Assembly (NCBI GenBank): GCA_963833905.1
Contig: CAWHZQ010000020.1
Location: 3,293 to 67,292 of the forward strand
Length of the DNA stretch: 64,000 nucleotides
Origin: an uncultured Gemmatimonadales bacterium
GTDB taxonomy: Bacteria > Gemmatimonadota > Gemmatimonadetes > Gemmatimonadales > GWC2-71-9
Reading direction: 5' to 3'
The position numbers and the translations under genes are program-made. Below are positions 52,385 to 63,960 of this stretch, one piece after another. Positions within the stretch are counted from its first letter, which is position 1. The number at the start of each line of letters is the position of its first letter. The notes beneath the pieces were generated by a model that did no database searches, had not been told where the DNA came from, and worked only from the letters and a program-made list of their open reading frames with translations.

Positions 52385-53040
52385 CCGACGGCAGCGTCCG
52401 CGGCGCGGTCCTGGCCGGGCGGCGGGGCCACCCGCTTCGGCGGCCGGCCGAAGGGCCTGGAGACGATCGGCGGCGAGCGGATCCTCGACCGGCTGGTGGA
52501 CACGCTCACCGAGGCCCTGGGCGAGCCGCCGCTGCTCGTGGCCAACGCGCCCGACGCCGGCGCGCTGGCGTCCCGGCCTTCGGGTAGTGCCCGATGTCCG
52601 CCCGGGACTCGGGGCGCTCGGCGGGATCTACACGGCGGTGGTCGAGGCGCCGGCGCCGGTCGTGTGCGTCGCCTGGGACATGCCGTTCGTGTCGGTGGCG
52701 CTGGTCCAGGCGCTCGCCGCCGGGCTCGACGTCGCACGACGCCATGCTCGCCGAAAGCGACGGCCGCCGCGGCGTGGAGCCGCTCTGCGCCGCCTACGGT
52801 CCCGCCTGCCGCGACGCCATCGCCGCCACCCTCGATGCCGGCGACCTCCGCGCCATCGGCTTCCACCAGCGCATCTCTGTCGGTATCCTCCCTCTGTCCC
52901 AGGTCCGGCGCTTCGGCGATCCGGAGCTCCTGTTCTTCAACGTCAACACCGCGGACGATCTCGCGCGCGCGGACGGACTGTGGCGTCGACACGCATCCTC
53001 TCCATCATCGGGCGGAAGAACGCCGGAAAGACCACGCTGA
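52381..53040 (+). CDS. mobA: Molybdenum cofactor guanylyltransferase (frameshifted)
   Basis: GAVLAG, RFGGRPKG, GALGGIY, AWDMPF, EPLCAAY, FFNVNT. Confidence 0.85.
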
Positions 53041-53513
53041 CCGTGGCGCTCGCGAGCGAGCTCGCGCGGCGCGGACGGCGGGTCATGACCATCAAGCACA
53101 GCCACCACCCCGCGGACGTGGACCGGCCGGGCTCGGACAGCTGGCGGCACTTCCACGAGGGCCGTGCCGAGCGGTCGCTGATCGCGGCGCCCGATCTTCG
53201 CGTGCTCTTCGAGCGCTCCCCCGACGAGTATGATCCGGTGGCCCTCGCGCGCCGGTACATGGCCGACGCCGACATCGTCCTCGCCGAGGGCTACAAGCGG
53301 GCGCCGATCCCCAAGATCGAGGTCTTCCGGCCCTCGGTGTCGCCGACCCCGATCTTCGACGCCACCGCGCCCGACGCCCACCTCTGGGCGGCCATCGTCA
53401 CCGACGATCTCGACTTCGAGTCGCCCTGCAAGGTGATCCGCTTCCAGGACACGATGTGGCTGCAGCTGCTGGCCTCCCTGACCACCGAGTGCGCGCAGGC
53501 AATCGACGGATGA
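52980..53513 (+). CDS. mobB: Molybdopterin-guanine dinucleotide biosynthesis protein B
   Basis: IIGRKNAGKTT, IKHSHH, DSWRH, AEGYK. Confidence 0.92.
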   Translation: MASTRILSIIGRKNAGKTTLTVALASELARRGRRVMTIKHSHHPADVDRPGSDSWRHFHEGRAERSLIAAPDLRVLFERSPDEYDPVALARRYMADADIVLAEGYKRAPIPKIEVFRPSVSPTPIFDATAPDAHLWAAIVTDDLDFESPCKVIRFQDTMWLQLLASLTTECAQAIDG

Positions 53514-54764
53514 CCGCGCCGCTCTCGGCCGCCGAGGCCGCGCGCCGCATCCTCGACGACGTGCGCCGCCAGCCCGCGCTCCGGGTCCCGCTCGACGACG
53601 CGCTCGACAGCGTGCTCGCCGAGGACCTCGTGAGCCCGATCGACATCCCCGCCTGGACCAACTCGGCCATGGACGGCTACGCGGCCCGCGGCGACGACGT
53701 CCGGGGCGCGTCGGCCGAGGCGCCGGTGCGGCTCCGGGTGGTCGAGGTGCTCCCCGCGGGCGCGTTCCCCACGCGCCGGCTCGAGGCAGGCGAGACCGCC
53801 CGAATCTTCACCGGCGCGCCGCTCCCCGATGGCGCCGACACGGTCGTGCGGCAGGAGGATACCGACGAGGGCGCCGAGACGGTGACGATCGTGCGCGACC
53901 GCGACGTCGGCGTCAACTTCCGGCGCGTGGGCGAGGACATCCGGCGCGGCGCCACGGTGCTCACGGCGGGAATGGCACTGGGCCCGGCGCCGCTCGGCGT
54001 GCTCGCCTCCCTCGCCGTGGCCCAGCCATTGGTCTACCGCCGCCCGCGGGTGGCGATCCTCGGCAGCGGCGACGAGATCGTGGACGTCGACCAGCCCGAG
54101 GAGATCCTGAGCGGGCGGAAGATCGCCAGCAGCAACACCCATACGCTCGTGGCGCTGGTCCGCCACGCCGGCGGCGAGCCGGTGAATCTCGGCATCGCCC
54201 GGGACACGCCCGAGAGCCTGCGCGAGCACTTCCGGCGCGCGCTCGACTGCGATCTCCTGGTCACCACGGCCGGCATCAGCGTGGGCGAGCACGACTACGT
54301 CCGCTCCGTGCTCGACGAGCTCGGCGCCGTGCAGCGATTCTGGAAGTTGCGGATGCGGCCGGGCGCGCCGGTGGGCTTCGGGCTGCTCGGCGGGATTCCG
54401 TGGATCGGCCTGCCGGGCAACCCGGTGAGCACGATGGTGACGTTCGAGCTGTTCGTGCGGCCGGCCATTCGAAAGATGTGCGGGCATCCCCTGCCCTTCC
54501 GCCGCGCGGTGCCCGTGCGGCTCGCCGAGCCGGTCTCGGTCAGGCCGAAGCTGCAGCATTTCCTGCGCGCCGATCGTGAGCGAAGCGCCCGACGGGCCGG
54601 AGGCCCGGCTCACCGGGCCGCAGGGCTCGGGCATTCTCACTTCGATGGTGCTGGCGAACGCGCTGCTCGTCCTTCCGGAGGGTCAATTCGATACGCCTGC
54701 CGGGGCAACGGTGCAGGCGATCAGGCTCGACGATCCGGTGCATCAGCTCGAGCCCGGGTTCTGA
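53510..54764 (+). CDS. moeA: Molybdopterin molybdotransferase (frameshift near 3' end)
   Basis: SAMDGYA, IFTGAP, GSGDE, LPGNPVS, QGSGILTSM. Confidence 0.95.
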
Positions 54765-54847
54765 GCTAGCGCTCGGACCTACCGGACGCGGCCCGCCTCT
54801 CCTCTCCAGCCTTCCCCCAAGTCGTCTCTGCGTCAGTCGTTGTCTCG

Positions 54848-54890
54848 GGTGATTCCGGGGTGATTCGCGCGTGAGCGCCAGTCGTATACT
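54848..54890 (+). promoter_or_regulatory. Triple GTGA direct-repeat activator site plus -10 TATACT (site 1)
   Basis: GTGA at 54849, 54860, 54871; TATACT at 54885. Confidence 0.8.
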
Positions 54891-54949
54891 CGGCACGCAC
54901 CGAACGCCCCTACTCACGCGCATCGGGACATCGTCCCAAGGAGATATCG

Positions 54950-55966
54950 ATGCTCACCCTCAACTCGGAGCACCCGGCGATCCGGTCGCTCCACCACTTG
55001 CTTCCCCCGCTGGTCCTCGCCCTGGCGCTCGCCGCCTGCAACGGCGCGGACAGCCCCCTCGGGCCGCCCGACGGTTCGACCGTCCCCGCGAGCGAGCCGC
55101 TCGCGGCCGGCGGCGGGGCGGCGACGCCCGATTACTCGCTCGCGCCCGCCACCGGGCGGATCGTGTTCCAGTCATACCGGAGCGGCAGCGGCGACATCTA
55201 CCGGATGGACCCCCTGGGAACCACCCTCGTCCGCCTCACCACCTCGGTCGACGAAGAAAGGGTCCCGTCCTGGTCCTACGACAACAAGCGGATCGCGCTG
55301 GTGCGGCCGCGGCTGGACGCCAACAACACCAAGCACGACGACATCTACATCATCAACTCGGACGGTAGCGGCGGGCACTGGGCACGCGCGGTACCATCGC
55401 CCTGGCACCTGGGCGACCCCTCGTGGTCCCCCGATGGCTCGCGCCTGCTGGTGACCGTCACGGTGTCCTACACCTGGTATGTGGGCTGGATGGATCTGGC
55501 CACCGGTCAGATCGGCCTCTTCAACGGAGGCGGGTTCAATTATCCGGGACTCAAAGCATCGTACGACCGCAGCGGCCAGAAGATCGTGTATGTCGGCTCG
55601 GGCTCGAAGACCGTGGAGCAGATCAATGCCGATGGCACGGGTCACAAGGTCCTCGTGTCCTCGACCTTTGTGAGCCGCCCGGCCTATTCGCCGGACGGCA
55701 AGAAGGTCGCCTACAGCAGACTGATCAGTACCGGTGACGAGGAACTCTTCGTCAAGAACCTCGTGGATGGCACCACCAGGCGCATGACCTGGTCCGCGAA
55801 AGACGACAACTCACCGACCTGGTCGCCGGACGGGTCGAGGATCGCGTTCACGAGCCGCCGGTCAGGTCTGCTTCAGATCTGGACCATGAACGCCGCCACC
55901 GGGGGAAGCCTCACGCAGATCACACACACGGCCAACGCCGAACTGTACCCGCAGTGGTCCCACTAA
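54950..55966 (+). CDS. TolB-like PD40 beta-propeller lipoprotein 1
   Basis: AAGGAGA RBS, lipobox LAAC, repeated PxWSPDG, ends WSH. Confidence 0.9.
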   Translation: MLTLNSEHPAIRSLHHLLPPLVLALALAACNGADSPLGPPDGSTVPASEPLAAGGGAATPDYSLAPATGRIVFQSYRSGSGDIYRMDPLGTTLVRLTTSVDEERVPSWSYDNKRIALVRPRLDANNTKHDDIYIINSDGSGGHWARAVPSPWHLGDPSWSPDGSRLLVTVTVSYTWYVGWMDLATGQIGLFNGGGFNYPGLKASYDRSGQKIVYVGSGSKTVEQINADGTGHKVLVSSTFVSRPAYSPDGKKVAYSRLISTGDEELFVKNLVDGTTRRMTWSAKDDNSPTWSPDGSRIAFTSRRSGLLQIWTMNAATGGSLTQITHTANAELYPQWSH

Positions 55967-55984
55967 GCAGCGGCGGAGCACGAC

Positions 55985-56009
55985 ACGGCCCCCGGCACGC
56001 CGGGGGTCG
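55985..56009 (+). terminator. GC hairpin after propeller gene 1
   Basis: CGGCCCCCGGC...GCCGGGGGTCG. Confidence 0.45.
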
Positions 56010-56059
56010 TCTCGCTTCGTCCGTGTTCACAGATCGTCGATGGTCGGGAGCTTACACGA

Positions 56060-56102
56060 GGTGATCGGGAGGTGATTCGGGCGTGACCGCCGATCGTAGA
56101 CT
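56060..56102 (+). promoter_or_regulatory. Triple GTGA repeat plus -10 TAGACT (site 2)
   Basis: GTGA at 56061, 56072, 56083; TAGACT at 56097. Confidence 0.8.
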
Positions 56103-56166
56103 GGGCACGTGTTCACGGCCGTTCCGAATCCATTCGCACTGGGACCAGCGGTCCCAAGGAGAAACG

Positions 56167-57171
56167 ATGCCATCCCCCAGTCACCAGAGCCCGATCCTCG
56201 GCTCGTCCCGTTCCGTGCTTGCCCCGCTGTTCGCGCTGGCCCTGTCCGTGGCGCTCGGCGGCTGCGGCGCCACCGACAACCCGCTCGCCCCGGCCGCCGC
56301 AGACGAGGCACTCGCACCCGCCAGCGAGTCCGCTGCGCCCGCCTACGCCCTCACCGGCACCTCACAGCGGATCGTGTTCAATTCGGCCCGCAAGGGCGGC
56401 TACGACATCTTCAAGATGGATCCGCTGGGGCATAGCGTCGTCGGCCTGACCACCACTGCCTACGCCGGGGAGCCCGCCTGGTCCCAGGGCAACACGCGCA
56501 TCGCGATGGTGCGCGAGCGGCTGGACGCGTCGAAGGTCGGCCACACCGACATCTACCTGATCAACGCGGACGGGACCAACGGGCATTGGGCGCGGGCCAC
56601 CCCCTCCCCATACAATCTGCGCTACCCCTCCTGGTCTCCCGACGGGTCACGCATCCTGCTGACCATCCAGCAGCTGGGCAAGCCGTACCTGGCGACGCTG
56701 ATCCTCGCCACCGGTCAGATCAAGTTCGTCACCAGCGCTGGCATCAGCGTGCAGGGCAACTACCCGTCGTACAACCGGGCCGGCACGAAGATCGTCTTCG
56801 TCAGTCCCAGCGGCACGAGCTTTCAGGAGATGAACACGGACGGAACCGCCCGCAAGGTGCTCGCCTCGTTCGCGAAAACTCTGAGCGAGCCGAGATACTC
56901 GCCGGATGGCAGCAAGATCGCCTTCGAGATGCTGGACGGCCTCAACATCGACATCTACGTGTGGAACCTCGCCACCCACGTGAAAACCCGTCTCACCACG
57001 AGCACCGGTATCGACGAGCAGGCGACCTGGTCGCCGGACGGCTCCAGGATCGCGTTCATGAGCACGCGAACCGGGCAGCCTCAGATCTGGACCATGAGCC
57101 CGACCGGTGCGAACCAGGCGCGGATCACCTGGACGAACACGGCCGAGAAGGATCCGGCGTGGTCGCACTAG
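56167..57171 (+). CDS. TolB-like PD40 beta-propeller lipoprotein 2 (paralog)
   Basis: AAGGAGA RBS, lipobox LGGC, WSPDG repeats, ends WSH. Confidence 0.9.
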   Translation: MPSPSHQSPILGSSRSVLAPLFALALSVALGGCGATDNPLAPAAADEALAPASESAAPAYALTGTSQRIVFNSARKGGYDIFKMDPLGHSVVGLTTTAYAGEPAWSQGNTRIAMVRERLDASKVGHTDIYLINADGTNGHWARATPSPYNLRYPSWSPDGSRILLTIQQLGKPYLATLILATGQIKFVTSAGISVQGNYPSYNRAGTKIVFVSPSGTSFQEMNTDGTARKVLASFAKTLSEPRYSPDGSKIAFEMLDGLNIDIYVWNLATHVKTRLTTSTGIDEQATWSPDGSRIAFMSTRTGQPQIWTMSPTGANQARITWTNTAEKDPAWSH

Positions 57172-57190
57172 GCGGCCGCTCCAACAGCCA

Positions 57191-57234
57191 GGTGATTTCG
57201 GGATGATTCGCCGGTGAGTACCGGCCGGCATACT
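57191..57234 (+). promoter_or_regulatory. Triple repeat plus -10 CATACT (site 3)
   Basis: GTGA 57192, ATGA 57203, GTGA 57214; CATACT 57229. Confidence 0.72.
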
Positions 57235-57307
57235 TGGCGTGTCAACATCGCCCGAATCGACCAGTGATCCCTGTAGCGATCGACACTCGAGGGTGAAGGA
57301 GGACAGT

Positions 57308-57412
57308 ATGACCCGACCGACCGATGCCACCAGCGGGGCGCGCTTCGACTCTCCCCTCGCCCTGTGGATCACGATCTGGCAGCGTTACCTGGTGTACGGA
57401 CAGACGCTCTGA
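57308..57412 (+). CDS. Unannotated 34-aa small protein
   Basis: AAGGAGG RBS; MTRPTDATSGARFDSPLALWITIWQRYLVYGQTL; own promoter (site 3). Confidence 0.6.
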   Translation: MTRPTDATSGARFDSPLALWITIWQRYLVYGQTL

Positions 57413-57503
57413 CTGCGCAGGATTGGTTGCACGAAGCGGCGTTCAGCACAGGTGGCCCCCGGGCGGATCACCGCGCCGGGGGCTCGTTTCGGAGGAGCGA
57501 CCC

Positions 57504-60259
57504 TCAGGATGGCCGGTCGAGGGTCATCCGCCAGATGTCGCTCTCGCGCTCGGAGAGCGTGAAGTAGAACCGCCGGCCATCCACCGCGAATTCAGCGCGC
57601 GGGGATGGCCGCGCGGCGTCGTCGAACCGCACGAGGAGCCTGGGCTCGCCGCCGCCGGCCGGGACCGACCAGAGGCTCGCGTGGCCCTGCCCATCCAGCG
57701 CCTTGTAGTACACGGTGCGTCCCTCGGGCGACCACTGCGCCAGCAGCGGCACCGGGCGGACGGCGGGATCCCGGCTGTCGACGAGGAGCCGCGGCGCTCC
57801 CCCGTTTGGCGCGATCACCCACAGGCCCCCGTTGCGCAGGTAGACGATCTCCCGCCCGTCGGGCGACCAGCGCGCGTCCTGTCCGCCCTCGGTGGTGAGC
57901 TGGCGGGGCGCCTTCCAGCGGCCACCGGCCTCCCGCTCCACCGCGTACAGCTCGAATCGTCCCGTGCGGTCGGAGTGGTAGACCAGGCGTCGCCCGTCGG
58001 GAGACCAGTCCGGGAACCGCTGGTTGCCCGAGTCGGACACCACCGGGCTCGGCGTGCCGCCGATGGCGGGGATGACGAACAGGCGCCGGTGGCCCCCGCG
58101 GAAGCCGTAGTAGGCGACCTCCCGCCCGTCGGGCGACCAGGACGGCATGAAGGCATCGCCCGAATCCGGCGAGAGCAGCTCCGGCTCGCCGCCGGTGCGC
58201 GGCATCAGGTAGATCGCCTGGTGTCCACCGCGGTCCGAGTCGAACGCCAGCCAGCGTCCGTCCGGCGACACCGCCATGCCCTCGATCGACTGGTGGCCCG
58301 ACGTGAGGGGCTCGGCAGCCGCCGCCGACACTGGTCCGGCAGCGGGTATGGGGAGCGTGGCGACGTTGGCGTATTCGGTGAAATCGTCGTAGGCGAGCTG
58401 GCGGCCGTCGCGCGACAGATCGATCGTGTGGATCTGCAGGCCGGTGGTGAGCCGGAGCCGGCGCGCCCGCCGCTTGCCCGACCGATCGATGGCGACGCGA
58501 TAGACGTCCCGGCTGCCGTCCCGGCTGGAGACGAACAGCAGGCTCCGGCCATCCGGCAGCCAGGCGGGGCTCGTGTTGAGCGCCGCCGCGTCCGTGAGCG
58601 GCACCGGCGGGCCGCCGGACGCGGCGACGGTCCAAATGGCGCTGGGCGCGATGTTGCCGATGGCGTTGGGCGCGTAGACGAACGCCGCGTTCCCGAGCAC
58701 GTAGGCGATGCGCGAGCCGTCCGGCGACCAGGCGAACGAGTGCGGCTGCCCCACCTCCGCGATCGTCGTCGGCGGCCCGCCTTCGGCGGCGCGGACCTCG
58801 ATCCTCCGACCGACGGCGTAGACGATCTTCCGGCCATCGGGCGACCAGGCCAGGTAACTCGGACCCTCGTCGCTGATCGCCCCTTCGCCGTTGACGCCGG
58901 GACTCTGCTCCGGCGGCGCGACCAGCAGCCGGGCGGGTCCACCGAGCGCGGGGACGACGTAGATCGCCCGCCCCGCCTCGAAGCTGAGCCGCGAGCCGTC
59001 CGGGGACCAGCGGGGCCAGTGCTGGTCGCCCGGCGTGCTGTCGGCCACCGCAATGGTGCGGCCGCCGGAGAGCTGGCGGACGTAGATCCGGAGCCGTCCA
59101 TTCGGTCCCGCTGCGTAGGCGACGAACTTCCCGTCGGGCGAGAGGGCCGGATGGATCTCCAGCCCGGGCTGTCCGGTGACCCGGGTGATGCGGCCGGCGC
59201 GCAGCTCACGCGGCGCGGCTGGGGCGGAGGAGCGCCGCGCCGCCCGCGAGCGCGATCACGGCGCACGCAGCGAGCACCCACCGGCGCGCGGAACGTCGGG
59301 ATGCGAAATGGGGCTTCGAGAGGCCTGCTTCGACAGGGCTCGCCGGGCGGGGCGCGCGCGTGGCAGCTCCGGCGTCCTCGGGCAGCGACGCGGGCGTCAC
59401 CTCCACTTCCGCGGGTGGAGGGGGCCACGTGTCGGATAGCAGATCAGGCGCGTTGCGTATCTGCCGGGGATGCAGGCGGCGAGGAGTCGGCGGGCAGATC
59501 GGCAGGCGGTGGCTCGACGCTCACCGGACGCTCGGCAACGCTGGCGACCATCTGCGTCCTGATCCGCTCGGCCAGCGCCACCACGGCTTGATCCGGCGGC
59601 GCCTCCAGCTCCTGCTCCAGCAGCACTTCGTAGACTCGAGCGTGCTGGAGGGCGGCGGTGCGGTCGCCCGCCGCCACGAGCGCCTCCATCAGGCCAATGG
59701 CCACGCGGGCGTTGAGCGGATCCTGCGCCGCCAGCTTGCGCCACCATTCCGCGCAGTCCAGGTGGTCCCCACGATCGGCCGCCCGCCGGCCCAGACGCTC
59801 GAGCGCGGTGGCATGGTCCCGCGCCAGGCCCGCGCGCTCCTCCTCGAGCCAGCGCTCGAACTCGCCCGCCTCCGAGAGATGAAAGCCGTCGAGAAATGGA
59901 CCGCCGTATTCCGCGACCGCCCGCTCCGGGTAGCCGGCCTTCAGTGCGGCCGAGAACGCCGCGACGTCGCTCGTGACCAGATCGGGATTGAGCCGGACGT
60001 CCCGGGTTCCCAGGAAGACCTCGTCGGCGCCCATCTCCTGCCGAAGCGCGTAGAGGGCCTGGTTGAGTCCTTTCCGCGCGCGCTCCTCGTCCGTCTCCGC
60101 CCAGAGCATGCCGATCAGCCGGTCGCGTGTCATGCCCTGCTCGCCCGAAGCCGCCAGCAGGGCGAGCAGCCCGAGGCGCCGCGGCTGGGAAGCCGCGCCG
60201 CTCAAGCGCTGACCATCGCGCTCCAGGAACAACCTGCCAAACGTGTTAAGACGTAACAG
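57504..60259 (-). CDS. Transmembrane SARP/BTAD transcriptional activator with a C-terminal PD40 propeller (frameshifted)
   Basis: RLNTFG, QPRRLGLLALL, RDRLIGMLW, YGGPFLDGF, DPLN (HTH + BTAD); TM WVLAACAVIALAGGAALL; many WSPDG repeats; shifts near 59440 and 59210. Confidence 0.88.
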
Positions 60260-60355
60260 GTTAGGCTCGGTGATTCTGAGGTGACCGGTGGGAGCGATCT
60301 TGGTACCAATTGTAGAGTCGGAGCAGTGTGCCCACAAGACACAAGGAGCGCCGAA

Positions 60356-60820
60356 ATGCGTCCAGAAACCGAGCGGGTCGTTCGCGAGAGCTGGGCCCAA
60401 TTCGAGCCGGTCGCGGTGGAGTCGGCCGCGTTCTTCTACGATAAGCTGTTCGAGCTTGACCCCGAGGCGCAGCGCCTCTTCGCCAAAACCGACATGGTCG
60501 CACAGGGTCACAAGGTCATGCGGATGTTCGCCGAGATCGTGCACAACCTCGACCGGCCGGAGGCGCTGGTCGCCGAGGTGGCTGACCTCGGCCGTCGGCA
60601 CGTCGGCTACGGCGTGCAGGATCACCAGTACGACTCGGTCGGCACCGCGCTGCTCTGGACGCTCGAGCGCGGCCTGGGTCCGGCCTTTACCGACGAGATC
60701 CGGGATGCCTGGACCGAAGCCTACCTCCTCTTCTCGAGCGTCGCGCGGCGGGCCACCGCCCGCGCGTCCCAGCCCGCGAGGCTACACGGCGCTACCATAA
60801 GTCCTTATAGAAGAACCTGA
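60356..60820 (+). CDS. Single-domain globin 1
   Basis: FYDKLFELDP, LGRRHVGYGV, VGTALLWTL, AWTEAY. Confidence 0.92.
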   Translation: MRPETERVVRESWAQFEPVAVESAAFFYDKLFELDPEAQRLFAKTDMVAQGHKVMRMFAEIVHNLDRPEALVAEVADLGRRHVGYGVQDHQYDSVGTALLWTLERGLGPAFTDEIRDAWTEAYLLFSSVARRATARASQPARLHGATISPYRRT

Positions 60821-60827
60821 TGGGCAT

Positions 60828-60870
60828 GGTGAGATCCAGGTGATTTCAGCGTGACTCCGCCCGGTAGACT
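60828..60870 (+). promoter_or_regulatory. Triple GTGA repeat plus -10 TAGACT (site 4)
   Basis: GTGA at 60829, 60840, 60851; TAGACT at 60865. Confidence 0.8.
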
Positions 60871-60947
60871 TGTTCCCGTCAACTGGGCAGCGGCGAGGCC
60901 CGAAGCCGATGCCACCATCCAACGGGCCCTCGATTAGGAGTCACACC

Positions 60948-61475
60948 ATGAAGACCATGACCGCACTGGGCCTGAGCTCGCTCATCGTCCTGACGCTGGC
61001 GGCATTCACCGGCGCGGCGCGTCCGACGATCCTGCCGGCCCCGAGCGAATCCTCCTCCTTCTTCGCCGAGCTCCACGGCGACCTGCACGCCAGCCCCCGC
61101 GGGACGGCACGGTTCGGCACGGTCGAAGGCGGCCCGGGCGCCACGAAGTTCAGCCTGTCGCTGGGTGCCGACGGCGCGGATGGCTCCGTGCTCTTCACGC
61201 GGACCAACGGCGGCCGGCTGACGCCCGGCACTTACGCCATCTCGGGCCGGGACAACGGCACGGACGAGATCCGGGCGCTCGTCATGACCGGCTCCGCCAC
61301 TCGGCCCACCGGCGTCTTTCGGGGCCAGTCGGGCTACCTGATCGTCACCTCGGCGACCGACAACGTCATTCGTGGGCGGTTTGAGGTGGCGGCCACGGGC
61401 TTTCTCGCCTCGGATCCGGCGGACGAGTCCCGGCCGATGAAGGCGACCGGCATGTTCACCGCCACCCGCGAATAG
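60948..61475 (+). CDS. Hypothetical secreted beta-rich protein
   Basis: AGGAG RBS, signal peptide, beta-strand pattern ending GMFTA. Confidence 0.7.
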   Translation: MKTMTALGLSSLIVLTLAAFTGAARPTILPAPSESSSFFAELHGDLHASPRGTARFGTVEGGPGATKFSLSLGADGADGSVLFTRTNGGRLTPGTYAISGRDNGTDEIRALVMTGSATRPTGVFRGQSGYLIVTSATDNVIRGRFEVAATGFLASDPADESRPMKATGMFTATRE

Positions 61476-61495
61476 CGGCGAGAGAGGAGCGCACC

Positions 61496-61921
61496 ATGAC
61501 TGGCGAGCAGATCCGGCTGGTCCGGGTCACCTGGCTCGAGGTGGCCCAGATCGCCGATGCCGCGGCACGGCTGTTCTATGAACGCCTGTTCGAGACCGAT
61601 CCGGAGGTCCGTCAGCTCTTCGCGCACAGCGACATGGACCAGCAGCGAGTGAAACTCCTGCGGACCCTGACGGTCGCCGTGGGGGCGCTGGACAAGCTGG
61701 AGACGATCCGGCCGGCACTCGAAAACCTGGGACGACGGCACGTCGGCTACGGCGTTGAGGATCGTCATTACGAGCTGGTCGGAGCCGCGCTGCTGTGGAC
61801 GTTGGAACAGGGGCTGGGAGACGGCTATACCGCCGCGGTGCGTGAGGCATGGACCGCCGCCTACACGACCCTGGCGACCATCATGCGCGAGGCGGCGGCC
61901 ACGGTGGAGCGAGCCGCCTGA
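61496..61921 (+). CDS. Single-domain globin 2
   Basis: FYERLFETDP, LGRRHVGYGV, VGAALLWTL, AWTAAY. Confidence 0.93.
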   Translation: MTGEQIRLVRVTWLEVAQIADAAARLFYERLFETDPEVRQLFAHSDMDQQRVKLLRTLTVAVGALDKLETIRPALENLGRRHVGYGVEDRHYELVGAALLWTLEQGLGDGYTAAVREAWTAAYTTLATIMREAAATVERAA

Positions 61922-61937
61922 CGCTCGGGCCGGGTGA

Positions 61938-61966
61938 TTGATTCCGGCGGGGAACCCCGCTACTTT
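61938..61966 (+). promoter_or_regulatory. Sigma-70 promoter TTGATT-N17-TACTTT
   Basis: Immediately upstream of the riboswitch aptamer. Confidence 0.65.
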
Positions 61967-61977
61967 TGAGCCTTGTA

Positions 61978-62101
61978 GAAGGGGAGTAGCTCATCCGCCA
62001 CGAGGCGGACGACTGGATCGTCAAGACTGTCCGACGCGTTCGGGCACGGTCCAGCCGGGGTCGAGGGAGACACGATCTCCCCGTATCAGAGCGAGACCTT
62101 C
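61978..62101 (+). ncRNA. yybP-ykoY manganese riboswitch
   Basis: GAAGGGGAGTAGC, CGTCAAGAC and GCGAGACCTTC hallmark segments; upstream of a TerC operon. Confidence 0.88.
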
Positions 62102-62141: not shown

Positions 62142-62184
62142 GTCATCAGACCCCACTCACCAGCAAGGTGCTACAGAGGAGCGC

Positions 62185-63024
62185 ATGAACAACGTCAAGA
62201 CCATGGTCCTGATGGCCGGCCTTCTGGGCCTGTTCCTGCTCGCCGGCCAGCTGCTCGGGGGGTCGCAGGGGCTCGTGCTCGCCCTGGTCCTGGGCAGCGC
62301 GTTCAACTTCATCATGTACTTCTTCTCGGATAAGATCGTGCTCCGGATGTACGGCGCGCAGATCGTCAGCGAGGAGCAGGCGCCCGAGCTCTACCGGATG
62401 GTCGACCGGCTCCGCCAGCGGGCGGGACTGCCGATGCCGGTCGTCGCGGTGGCGCCGCACGAGCAGCCCAACGCGTTCGCCACCGGACGGAACCCCGACC
62501 ACGCGGTCGTCGCGGTGACGACGGGCATCCTCAAGTACATGCCGCAGGAGGAGCTCGAGGGCGTCATCGCGCACGAGCTGGCGCACGTCAAGAACCGGGA
62601 CATGCTGATCACCACGCTGGCCGCGGGCGTCGCCGGCGCGATCAGCAACCTGCCCTACCTGCTCCTGTTCGGCGGCGGGCGGAGCGATGAGGACGGCCAC
62701 CCGATCGCGCAGCTGGCGCTGCTCCTGCTCGCGCCGATCGGCGCCATGCTGATCCAGTTCGCCGTGTCGCGCCAGCGGGAGTTCGAGGCCGACCGGGTCG
62801 GCGCCGAGATCCTCGGCCGGCCGATGCCGCTGGCCAACGCGCTCCGCCGGCTCGACGCGATGGCCCAGCGGATCCCGATGCAGGTGGCTCCGGCCGCCGC
62901 GCCGCTCGCGCAGGTGAATCCGCTCGCGGCCCACGGCGGCGTGGCCGGCCTGTTCAGCACGCACCCGCCGACCGAGGAGCGCGTCGCCCGGCTCGAGGCG
63001 ATGACGGTGGCGGCGAGCCGGTAG
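62185..63024 (+). CDS. htpX: Zinc metalloprotease HtpX
   Basis: PNAFATGRNP, HELAHVKNRD, SRQREFEAD, FSTHPP. Confidence 0.93.
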   Translation: MNNVKTMVLMAGLLGLFLLAGQLLGGSQGLVLALVLGSAFNFIMYFFSDKIVLRMYGAQIVSEEQAPELYRMVDRLRQRAGLPMPVVAVAPHEQPNAFATGRNPDHAVVAVTTGILKYMPQEELEGVIAHELAHVKNRDMLITTLAAGVAGAISNLPYLLLFGGGRSDEDGHPIAQLALLLLAPIGAMLIQFAVSRQREFEADRVGAEILGRPMPLANALRRLDAMAQRIPMQVAPAAAPLAQVNPLAAHGGVAGLFSTHPPTEERVARLEAMTVAASR

Positions 63025-63960
63025 GTGGGTCATCACGGCCTGGCCGTCTGGCTGGGCTTCACGGGGATCGTGATCGCCCTCCTGGTCCTCGACCTGGGGG
63101 TGCTCAACCGGCGGTCCCACGTGCTGTCGTTCAAGGAGGCGATGAGCTGGAGCGGCGGGCTCATCGCCTTCGCGCTCTTGTTCGGGCTCTTTCTCTGGTG
63201 GCGCGAGGGCGCGCAGCACGCGCTCGAGTACTACACCGGCTACCTGATCGAGCTCTCCCTCAGCGTCGACAATCTCTTCGTCTTCATCCTGATCTTCAAC
63301 TACTTCGGCGTGCCCTCCGAGGCCCAGCCGAAGGTGCTCAAGTGGGGCATCCTCGGCGCCATCGTGATGCGGTTCATCATGATCACGGCGGGGGCGCTGC
63401 TGCTCCATCGGTTCGAGTGGATCATCTACGTCTTCGGCGGGATCCTGATCCTGACCGGCATCCGGATGCTGCTGCAGCGGGATGAGCGGATCGAGCCGGA
63501 GAAGAACCCCATCGTGCGGCTGGCGCGGCGGGTGCTGCCGTTCACCGACAGCTACGACGGCGCCAACTTCACCTGCCGGACCAGCAGCGGCCGGCTGCTC
63601 GCCACGCCGCTGGTGCTGGTGCTCCTCGTGGTCGAGTGGTCGGATCTGGTCTTCGCCATCGACAGCATTCCCGCCATCTTCGCGATCACGCGCGACCCGT
63701 TCCTGGTCTACAGCTCCAACGTGTTCGCCATCCTGGGGCTCAGGGCGCTCTTCTTCGTGCTGGCGGGGATGCTGGACAAGTTCGTCTACCTGAAGCCGGG
63801 GGTGGCGCTGATCCTGGTGTTCGTCGGGGGGAAGATGGCGGTGAGTGCCTGGCTGCACGTGCCCACTCTCGCGAGCCTGGCGGTCGTCATCCTCACCCTC
63901 GGCGCGTCGGTGGGCCTGTCGCTCTGGCGGAGCGCCAGGGAGGCGCGACAGGCCGCCTAG
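63025..63960 (+). CDS. TerC/Alx family metal homeostasis membrane protein
   Basis: LSVDNLFVF, DLVFAIDSIPA, SNVFAILGLR. Confidence 0.95.
   Translation: MGHHGLAVWLGFTGIVIALLVLDLGVLNRRSHVLSFKEAMSWSGGLIAFALLFGLFLWWREGAQHALEYYTGYLIELSLSVDNLFVFILIFNYFGVPSEAQPKVLKWGILGAIVMRFIMITAGALLLHRFEWIIYVFGGILILTGIRMLLQRDERIEPEKNPIVRLARRVLPFTDSYDGANFTCRTSSGRLLATPLVLVLLVVEWSDLVFAIDSIPAIFAITRDPFLVYSSNVFAILGLRALFFVLAGMLDKFVYLKPGVALILVFVGGKMAVSAWLHVPTLASLAVVILTLGASVGLSLWRSAREARQAA

Follow-up and report, generated by a model that had tools for sequence, protein, structure and literature searches.

Triple GTGA-repeat promoters around the gene of a predicted membrane-spanning SARP-fold regulator in a soil Gemmatimonadales genome

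The window analyzed here is a 64-kb stretch of DNA from the metagenome-assembled genome (MAG) of a soil Gemmatimonadales bacterium (3.6 Mb, 70% G+C, 24 contigs, 73.7% complete). One part of it holds four promoters in which three GTGA-core heptamers stand ahead of a −10 hexamer. Around these promoters lie two PD40 beta-propeller lipoprotein genes, a 34-codon open reading frame (ORF), the gene of a secreted 175-amino-acid protein and two globin genes. Between promoters 3 and 4, on the minus strand, is the gene of a regulator whose N-terminal part has the fold of SARPs (Streptomyces antibiotic regulatory proteins). The relation between the repeats and this regulator is the subject of this report. 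The features are listed below, with strands in brackets; E is the expectation value and GC3 the G+C fraction at third codon positions.

54848..54890 (+): promoter 1; heptamers GGTGATT (54848-54854), GGTGATT (54859-54865) and CGTGAGC (54870-54876), 8-nt spacer, −10 TATACT (54885-54890)
54950..55966 (+): PD40 beta-propeller lipoprotein 1; 338 amino acids, lipobox LAAC, Pfam PD40 E 1.2e-21, GC3 0.88
56060..56102 (+): promoter 2; GGTGATC, GGTGATT and CGTGACC at an 11-bp period, 8-nt spacer, −10 TAGACT (56097-56102)
56167..57171 (+): PD40 beta-propeller lipoprotein 2; 334 amino acids, Pfam PD40 E 4.4e-27, GC3 0.90
57191..57234 (+): promoter 3; GGTGATT, GATGATT and GGTGAGT, 9-nt spacer, −10 CATACT (57229-57234)
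57308..57412 (+): 34-codon ORF; core RFDSPLxLWIxIWQ, ribosome-binding site GGAGGA, behind promoter 3
57504..59048 (−): PD40 beta-propeller sensor part of the regulator; 514 amino acids as an ORF, Pfam PD40 E 3.6e-52, GC3 0.92
59206..59443 (−): Pro-rich linker and single transmembrane helix of the regulator; helix WVLAACAVIALAGGAALLR at about 59280-59224, after RRSARR; second frame, stop 59208-59206
59444..60259 (−): SARP domain of the regulator; winged helix and BTAD, about 270 amino acids, frame ending in TGA at 59446-59444
60269..60297 (+): fifth, degenerate site; GGTGATT, GGTGACC and GGAGCGA at an 11-bp period
60356..60820 (+): globin 1; 154 amino acids, Pfam Globin E 7.1e-18
60828..60870 (+): promoter 4; GGTGAGA, GGTGATT and CGTGACT, 8-nt spacer, −10 TAGACT (60865-60870)
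60948..61475 (+): secreted 175-amino-acid protein with a signal peptide, behind promoter 4
61496..61921 (+): globin 2; 141 amino acids, Pfam Globin E 3.2e-17, 20 nt past the 175-amino-acid gene

Triple-repeat promoters and their spacing

The initial annotation had described four promoters with three GTGA cores at an 11-bp period, a central unit G(G/A)TGATT, a −10 hexamer 8 to 9 nt downstream and no −35 element. Each of these points was borne out. The cores lie at 54849/54860/54871, 56061/56072/56083, 57192/57203/57214 (the middle one being ATGA) and 60829/60840/60851. When the window was searched with a strict pattern, GTGA-N7-RTGATT-N5-GTGA with at most one mismatch, it matched only at 54849, 56061, 57192 and 60829, all on the plus strand. 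The chance level, taken from 100 dinucleotide-preserving shuffles of the window, was a mean of 0.03 matches, and none of the 100 shuffles reached 4. The third heptamer (NGTGANN) ends 8 nt before TATACT, TAGACT and TAGACT in promoters 1, 2 and 4 and 9 nt before CATACT in promoter 3; the 14 to 15 nt that had been counted from the last core to the −10 hexamer are the same distance. The central repeat occupies the −35 position, and a scan of 54700-62000 with the sigma-70 consensus gave 0 promoter-like sites. At position 57203 the window has A and contigs from three other soil metagenomes have G, so that promoter 3 has the canonical GGTGATT as its central unit in those contigs.

The motif is rare in the rest of the genome. 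Across the 3.6-Mb MAG the strict pattern gave 5 matches, the fifth of which (C4:20505) lies ahead of a third PD40 paralogue. A weight matrix with a 12-bit threshold found 7 strong sites and 1 weak site genome-wide, against 1 match (12.05 bits) in the reversed genome. The sites added by the matrix lie before lipoprotein genes of 185 and 369 amino acids, and a weaker one lies before another PD40 lipoprotein gene. For the spacing, we took a census of 31 sites in the stored loci with a core definition that was blind to the −10 hexamer. The spacer to a TAnnnT-like hexamer was 8 nt in 28 of these sites and 9 nt in the other 3.

We also compared ten orthologous loci (L023-L032). In eight of them the motif precedes the same gene families, namely the PD40 lipoprotein, the 175-amino-acid protein and the 34-codon ORF. 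In the other two, L027 and L031, those genes are absent between the regulator and MoeA and no convincing site was found there, apart from one 11.4-bit match in L027 with no gene behind it. Promoter 1 is kept ahead of PD40 lipoprotein genes in L023, L039 and L041, and promoter 4 is kept in L023, L026, L029, L030, L039, L040 and L043. Alignments of 8 promoters of the 175-amino-acid gene and of 7 PD40 promoters are conserved only in the three cores, in the −10 hexamer and in the few bases that follow.

In the PD40 promoters TT(G/A) is conserved about 8-9 nt before unit 1, and we asked whether it might be a fourth repeat unit. It is out of the 11-bp register, and the idea was dropped. About 8-14 nt past the −10 hexamer, at or just after the expected start, the promoters of the 175-amino-acid gene and the 34-codon ORF share the element CGTCAAC (57236-57250 and 60871-60885), in the place of which the PD40 promoters have GGCaCGT.

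The regulator and its linkage to the sites

The start codon of the regulator gene is likely CTG at 60259-60257, which is GTG in L024 and L030. Directly after the DNA-binding domain comes a BTAD (PF03704; E 2e-12, 48.1 bits against a cut-off of 22.1, residues 111-233). The AlphaFold2 (AF2) model of the SARP domain, built from 45 sequences, has a predicted local distance difference test (pLDDT) score of 93.1. In a Foldseek search of this model against the PDB, the top six matches were to AfsR in its transcription initiation complex (8k60, 8hvr) and to EmbR (2fez, 2ff4), with E values of 2e-9 to 2e-7 over about 255 columns and 23-25% identity. Matches beyond these six were generic TPR proteins with E values of 4e-3 or above. 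The alignment takes in the N-terminal sheet and helices of AfsR and EmbR, so the DNA-binding domain is an OmpR-type winged helix by fold, and some orthologues of the regulator have precomputed PF00486 matches. The regulator has no Response_reg match and so does not have the N-terminal receiver domain, with its phospho-acceptor Asp, of an OmpR/PhoB response regulator; its DNA-binding domain is N-terminal and the BTAD follows.

In this assembly the regulator lies in three frames, a point weighed below. Intact orthologues have about 915 residues on one chain; in the closest relatives the gene is a single ORF of 935 (L017) or 941 (L023) amino acids, and the order of its parts is the SARP domain, a Pro-rich linker, RRSARR, one hydrophobic helix and a propeller of about 510 residues. 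The linker and helix were placed by three-frame translation and by the hydropathy of the intact orthologue, whose best window is residues 327-345. The intact orthologues thus carry a winged helix, a single transmembrane helix and a sensor on one polypeptide, which is the layout of ToxR and CadC. From the positive-inside rule we infer that the regulator spans the membrane, with the SARP domain in the cytoplasm and the PD40 propeller outside. Database relatives are numerous: 3914 proteins reached E<=1e-10 among 8000 scored. Both BTAD and PD40 are present in 112 of the 120 relatives listed, and the sources name such relatives automatically as 'Tol biopolymer transport system component/DNA-binding SARP family transcriptional activator'. 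The genome itself has 11 BTAD matches, and paralogues of 43-49% identity occur in complete genomes of the same order.

The motif and the regulator occur together across the genus. A loose form of the pattern gave 54 matches in 20 of 61 genomes, and the reversed pattern, used as the control, gave 0 in all 61. The central unit was GTGAT in 40 of the 54. With an orthologue defined by E<=1e-80, GTGAT-type matches occurred in 12 of 13 genomes with an orthologue and in 6 of 48 without, counts that overstate the support for this linkage because the surveyed genomes are related to one another, and many of them are incomplete. The 48 include G003, which is flagged unpublished. Five of the six exceptions were followed individually, G074 being left out. 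In G055 and G069 a regulator of 54-59% identity lies beside the sites, in G013 the site adjoins a paralogue of 51% identity, and in G019 and G072 the sites are on short contigs with target genes. The one genome with an orthologue and no match, G063, does have sites under a slightly looser −10 definition.

A fifth site, missed by the initial annotation, ties the motif to the regulator gene itself. It lies 10 nt from the regulator start codon and faces globin 1, in the 100-bp region between the two divergent genes. Its consensus is GGTGATT-N4-GGTGAyC-N4-nnnGCGA, and none of the 11 orthologous loci departs from CTCGGTGATT..rGTGAy..GCGAT. The site is kept even in L027 and L031, which hold no other site. 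A minus-strand hexamer, TACAAT (60314-60309), is conserved as TA(G/C)(A/T)AT and would place the fifth site in the 5′ untranslated region (5′ UTR) of the regulator. Because such a −10 element would put the site in the regulator's own leader, the fifth site probably gives autoregulation. As a tentative assignment, the promoter of the regulator would be TTGTGG-17-TACAAT on the minus strand, the first hexamer of which matches the consensus at 3 of 6 positions.

Directly at their start, three further SARP genes in the genome carry 11-bp repeats with sequences of their own. These are TGACCGG three times, followed by TAACTT; TAACCGG three times, followed after 8 nt by TACTCT; and RTGAG four times, followed after 8 nt by TAGTGT. 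A −10-like hexamer stands 7-8 nt past the repeats in these paralogues. In all, promoters with triple or quadruple 11-bp repeats whose cores differ from those of the window were seen in this MAG (G000) at C9:128136, C9:~218050, C14:155243, C6:132862 and C9:6946. Their cores are TGACCGG, TAACCGG, RTGAG, GTGAC/TTGAC and GTGAGG, and three of them adjoin SARP paralogues.

Genes behind the promoters and their neighborhood

Promoters 1 and 2 precede PD40 lipoproteins 1 and 2. The 5′ UTR of lipoprotein 1 has a hairpin, GGGAC..GTCCC, adjoining the ribosome-binding site AAGGAG. The 5′ UTRs of the PD40 lipoprotein genes share the element ACTCAcgCGCA..GGGAC-N4-6-GTCCC against AAGGAG, which is kept across species and was seen at 54905-54949 and 56135-56166 of the window, at 4575-4614 of L001 and at C20:~123860 of G000. 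It may be a translational or mRNA-stability hairpin; it had no Rfam match. The C20 copy belongs to a PD40 lipoprotein gene with a four-unit GTGAT repeat promoter ahead of it (G000 C20:~123600-123970). The PD40 ORF there stops after 69 codons, and PD40-like sequence goes on in another frame, which is probably a second indel in the MAG.

The gene behind promoter 3 is a conserved 34-codon ORF. Orthologues of 33-34 codons stand behind the same motif in L023, L024, L026 and L028. Most of their differences fall on third positions of codons, and 4-6 codon changes are synonymous. A 755-amino-acid plus-strand ORF (57324-59591) was considered for the same promoter. It has a GC3 of 0.71 and no Pfam match, and it was rejected as a shadow frame because the opposing minus frame (57504-59048) has a GC3 of 0.92 and five PD40 repeats at E 3.6e-52. 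Long shadow ORFs opposite real genes, typical at 70% G+C, were also seen at 62146-63858 (−) and 53291-54640 (−), and GC3 separates them from the real genes of the window. Between the convergent 34-codon ORF and regulator gene there is a GC-rich hairpin at about 57450-57490.

At E<=1, Pfam gave no match for the 175-amino-acid protein behind promoter 4, for the 34-residue protein or for the C17 lipoprotein. The Atlas clusters closest to the 175-amino-acid protein consist of hypothetical proteins from Gemmatimonadota. Globin 2 is probably co-transcribed with the 175-amino-acid gene. Globin 1 is divergent from the regulator gene in all 11 orthologous loci. The two globins are single-domain proteins of about 45% identity to each other and lie on either side of promoter 4.

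Molybdenum-cofactor genes (a MobA/MobB fusion and MoeA) occupy 52587-54769, just upstream of promoter 1, and MoeA is a conserved neighbor in 7 of the 10 loci L023-L032. In L017, from the closest species in the genus set (G001), MoeA directly adjoins the regulator gene. L017 has neither PD40 lipoprotein 1 nor 2, no 34-codon ORF and none of promoters 1-3; the target genes therefore come and go beside the regulator. A terminator scan of 54700-62000 gave only 1 terminator-like site, which is inside globin 1 and within the shuffle level, and an Rfam scan of 54700-61600 gave two chance-level matches, far under the gathering scores.

The repeats as putative operators of a membrane-spanning SARP

The sites are present with a fixed geometry, they are conserved, the regulator has the SARP fold and the architecture described above, and the two are linked across species and across paralogues. 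We consider it probable that the triple GTGA heptamers are the operators of the membrane-spanning one-component SARP that is encoded among them. On the cytoplasmic side the regulator would have its winged helix and BTAD. A Pro-rich linker, about 80 residues long, would lead from there to one transmembrane helix and on to a PD40 (TolB-like) propeller, which would set the activity of the regulator from outside the membrane. Up to three SARP domains could sit side by side on a promoter, one per helical turn, with the units centered near −24, −35 and −46 if transcription starts 7 nt after the −10 hexamer. Once bound, the domains would make up for the absent −35 contact in the manner of AfsR on the afs box ('sigma adaptation') and would recruit RNA polymerase. 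Binding would then activate rather than repress, and the target genes would be switched on. The predicted targets are the PD40 lipoproteins, which resemble the sensor of the regulator, the 175-amino-acid protein with its globin, the 34-residue protein and further lipoprotein genes elsewhere.

Several observations weigh against this interpretation. By sequence, Trans_reg_C was found only below threshold in the regulator (E 7e-4, 20 bits against a cut-off of 26.2). A phmmer search of the SARP domain against PDB sequences returned designed TPR proteins only; AfsR and EmbR were missed, and the fold search was therefore needed. The fifth site lacks the 8-nt geometry, the next −10-like hexamer, TAGAGT (60313-60318), being 15 nt off. 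Contigs of the metatranscriptome run X20 lie on 57147-57736, 60383-60625 and 60847-61444 at 90-99% likeness. These RNA contigs already begin ahead of the predicted starts and could stem from carried-over DNA; they are silent on starts and expression.

The state of the regulator gene also weighs on that side. Two 1-base insertions relative to L023, near 59445 and 59219, divide it into its three frames, and the BTAD part is missing in 8 of the 120 relatives listed, so that split forms recur. A real split would leave the strain with a soluble SARP domain or with no functional one. It would then be possible that the SARP binds the repeats in general while the system is dead or rewired in this strain, with promoters that are orphaned or driven constitutively by a soluble SARP fragment. 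We regard this as unlikely. The letter at 59219 is missing from contigs of three soil metagenome runs from three studies, and contigs that span 59380-59510 are one letter shorter there, the second insertion site being placed from record lengths. These soil contigs lack the insertions, and therefore the split is not common to close relatives. Apart from the insertions, all three fragments have open frames and share 90-95% identity with the intact L023 protein, and the frameshifted look of the PD40 gene on C20 points to assembly errors. The split is thus probably an assembly error or a strain-specific lesion, as far as contig comparison can tell.

The repeats could also belong to a different protein. 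Pho boxes of PhoB/PhoP type are likewise made of 11-bp direct-repeat units that overlap and stand in place of the −35 element, and the genome encodes six proteins with strong Trans_reg_C matches. A classical OmpR/PhoB-family response regulator might therefore bind the sites, with the SARP gene as a bystander. The binder in those systems is a phosphorylated response regulator with a receiver domain, and both its motif and its regulon are different. No canonical OmpR-type regulator was found near the sites on the window's contig, as all six proteins are encoded on other contigs or far away. The motif tracks the SARP-PD40 regulator across species, including the site at its start codon in every orthologous locus, and the paralogous SARPs have different repeats at the same position. 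The targets are not those of a phosphate or envelope-porin regulon. We thus hold a response regulator to be a quite improbable binder. Less probable still is shared descent alone, in which duplicated PD40 genes took their promoters along as a relic without a dedicated regulator: three target genes are indeed paralogues with similar 5′ UTRs, but the motif also stands ahead of the unrelated 175-amino-acid protein, 34-codon ORF and 185- and 369-amino-acid lipoproteins, the DNA upstream of unit 1 and between the cores is unconserved whereas the cores and the −10 hexamer are kept at 40-90% protein identity, and the 8-nt spacer holds in nearly all of the sites in the census.

Assigning the repeats to the membrane-spanning SARP places the system beside the Streptomyces SARPs. 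The initial annotation had likened the geometry to that of SARP sites and called the repeat sequence different. The likeness is supported by the spacing rule, by the SARP-fold regulator amid the cluster and by the joint conservation across species, and the difference in sequence holds too: Streptomyces SARP repeats are, for example, of TCGAG type, versus GGTGATT here. Passages of one paper describe SARP targets as direct repeats that recur every 11 or 22 bp, the 3′ unit standing 8 bp away from the −10 element and overlapping the −35 (PMC10936776). They also show two AfsR SARP protomers side by side on the afs box, in contact with sigma region 4 and the core enzyme, which is called 'sigma adaptation' (PMC10936776). 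The DnrI and ActII-ORF4 sites are three heptamers, according to a section of a 2024 review that also calls SARPs 'exclusively found in actinobacteria' (PMC10972967). As far as these passages go, the regulator and its sites share with AfsR, ActII-ORF4 and DnrI the winged helix and BTAD fold, heptamers at an 11-bp period, 8 bp to the −10 hexamer and a missing or poor −35 element, and with DnrI and ActII-ORF4 the number of three repeats. The differences lie elsewhere. The host is a Gemmatimonadales bacterium, there is no biosynthetic cluster, and the targets are lipoproteins, globins and small proteins rather than antibiotic clusters. Identity to AfsR is only 23-25%. In its C-terminal part the regulator has a transmembrane helix and a PD40 propeller, whereas the Streptomyces proteins have nothing or a NOD-TPR part there.

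Two other systems share single features with the regulator. EmbR of Mycobacterium tuberculosis (2fez, 2ff4) has the SARP fold, with a TM-score of 0.65 (query-normalized) over 256 columns, but it has a C-terminal FHA domain and phosphorylation control and is without a membrane anchor or propeller. Activators of the ToxR/CadC type lack a BTAD, their sensors are folded differently, and their binding sites lie further upstream or vary in position. To our knowledge, the 8-bp SARP grammar has not been described for them. What they have in common with the regulator, in the portions of the two papers that treat their layout, is a cytoplasmic OmpR-like winged helix, a linker, a single transmembrane helix, an extracytoplasmic sensor and DNA binding at the membrane (PMC5430869, PMC10629549). 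Full-text searches of open-access papers and bioRxiv brought up nothing on Gemmatimonadota SARPs, nor on SARPs anchored in the membrane or linked to a propeller.

Beyond this locus, we put forward tentatively, and at less than even odds, that Gemmatimonadota hold a large class of membrane-spanning SARP receptors (at least 3914 relatives, several paralogues per genome), each of which would recognize an operator of its own, with three units at an 11-bp period, and would substitute for the −35 contact from its place in the membrane. If this is true, the 'sigma adaptation' of actinobacterial antibiotic regulators extends to a diderm phylum and to transmembrane signaling. The lipoproteins that would be induced are themselves propellers akin to the sensor, so they may act back on the regulator, for example by delivering or titrating a ligand. 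The presence of the full SARP promoter grammar in Gemmatimonadota suggests that the mechanism goes further back and is in wider use than has been assumed, and it provides an abundant, almost unstudied soil phylum with a predicted regulon and operator code. One protein and a 29-bp operator would make a simple system for how a membrane-tethered activator works at −35, and the paralogue-specific repeats could be a natural specificity table for SARP DNA recognition.

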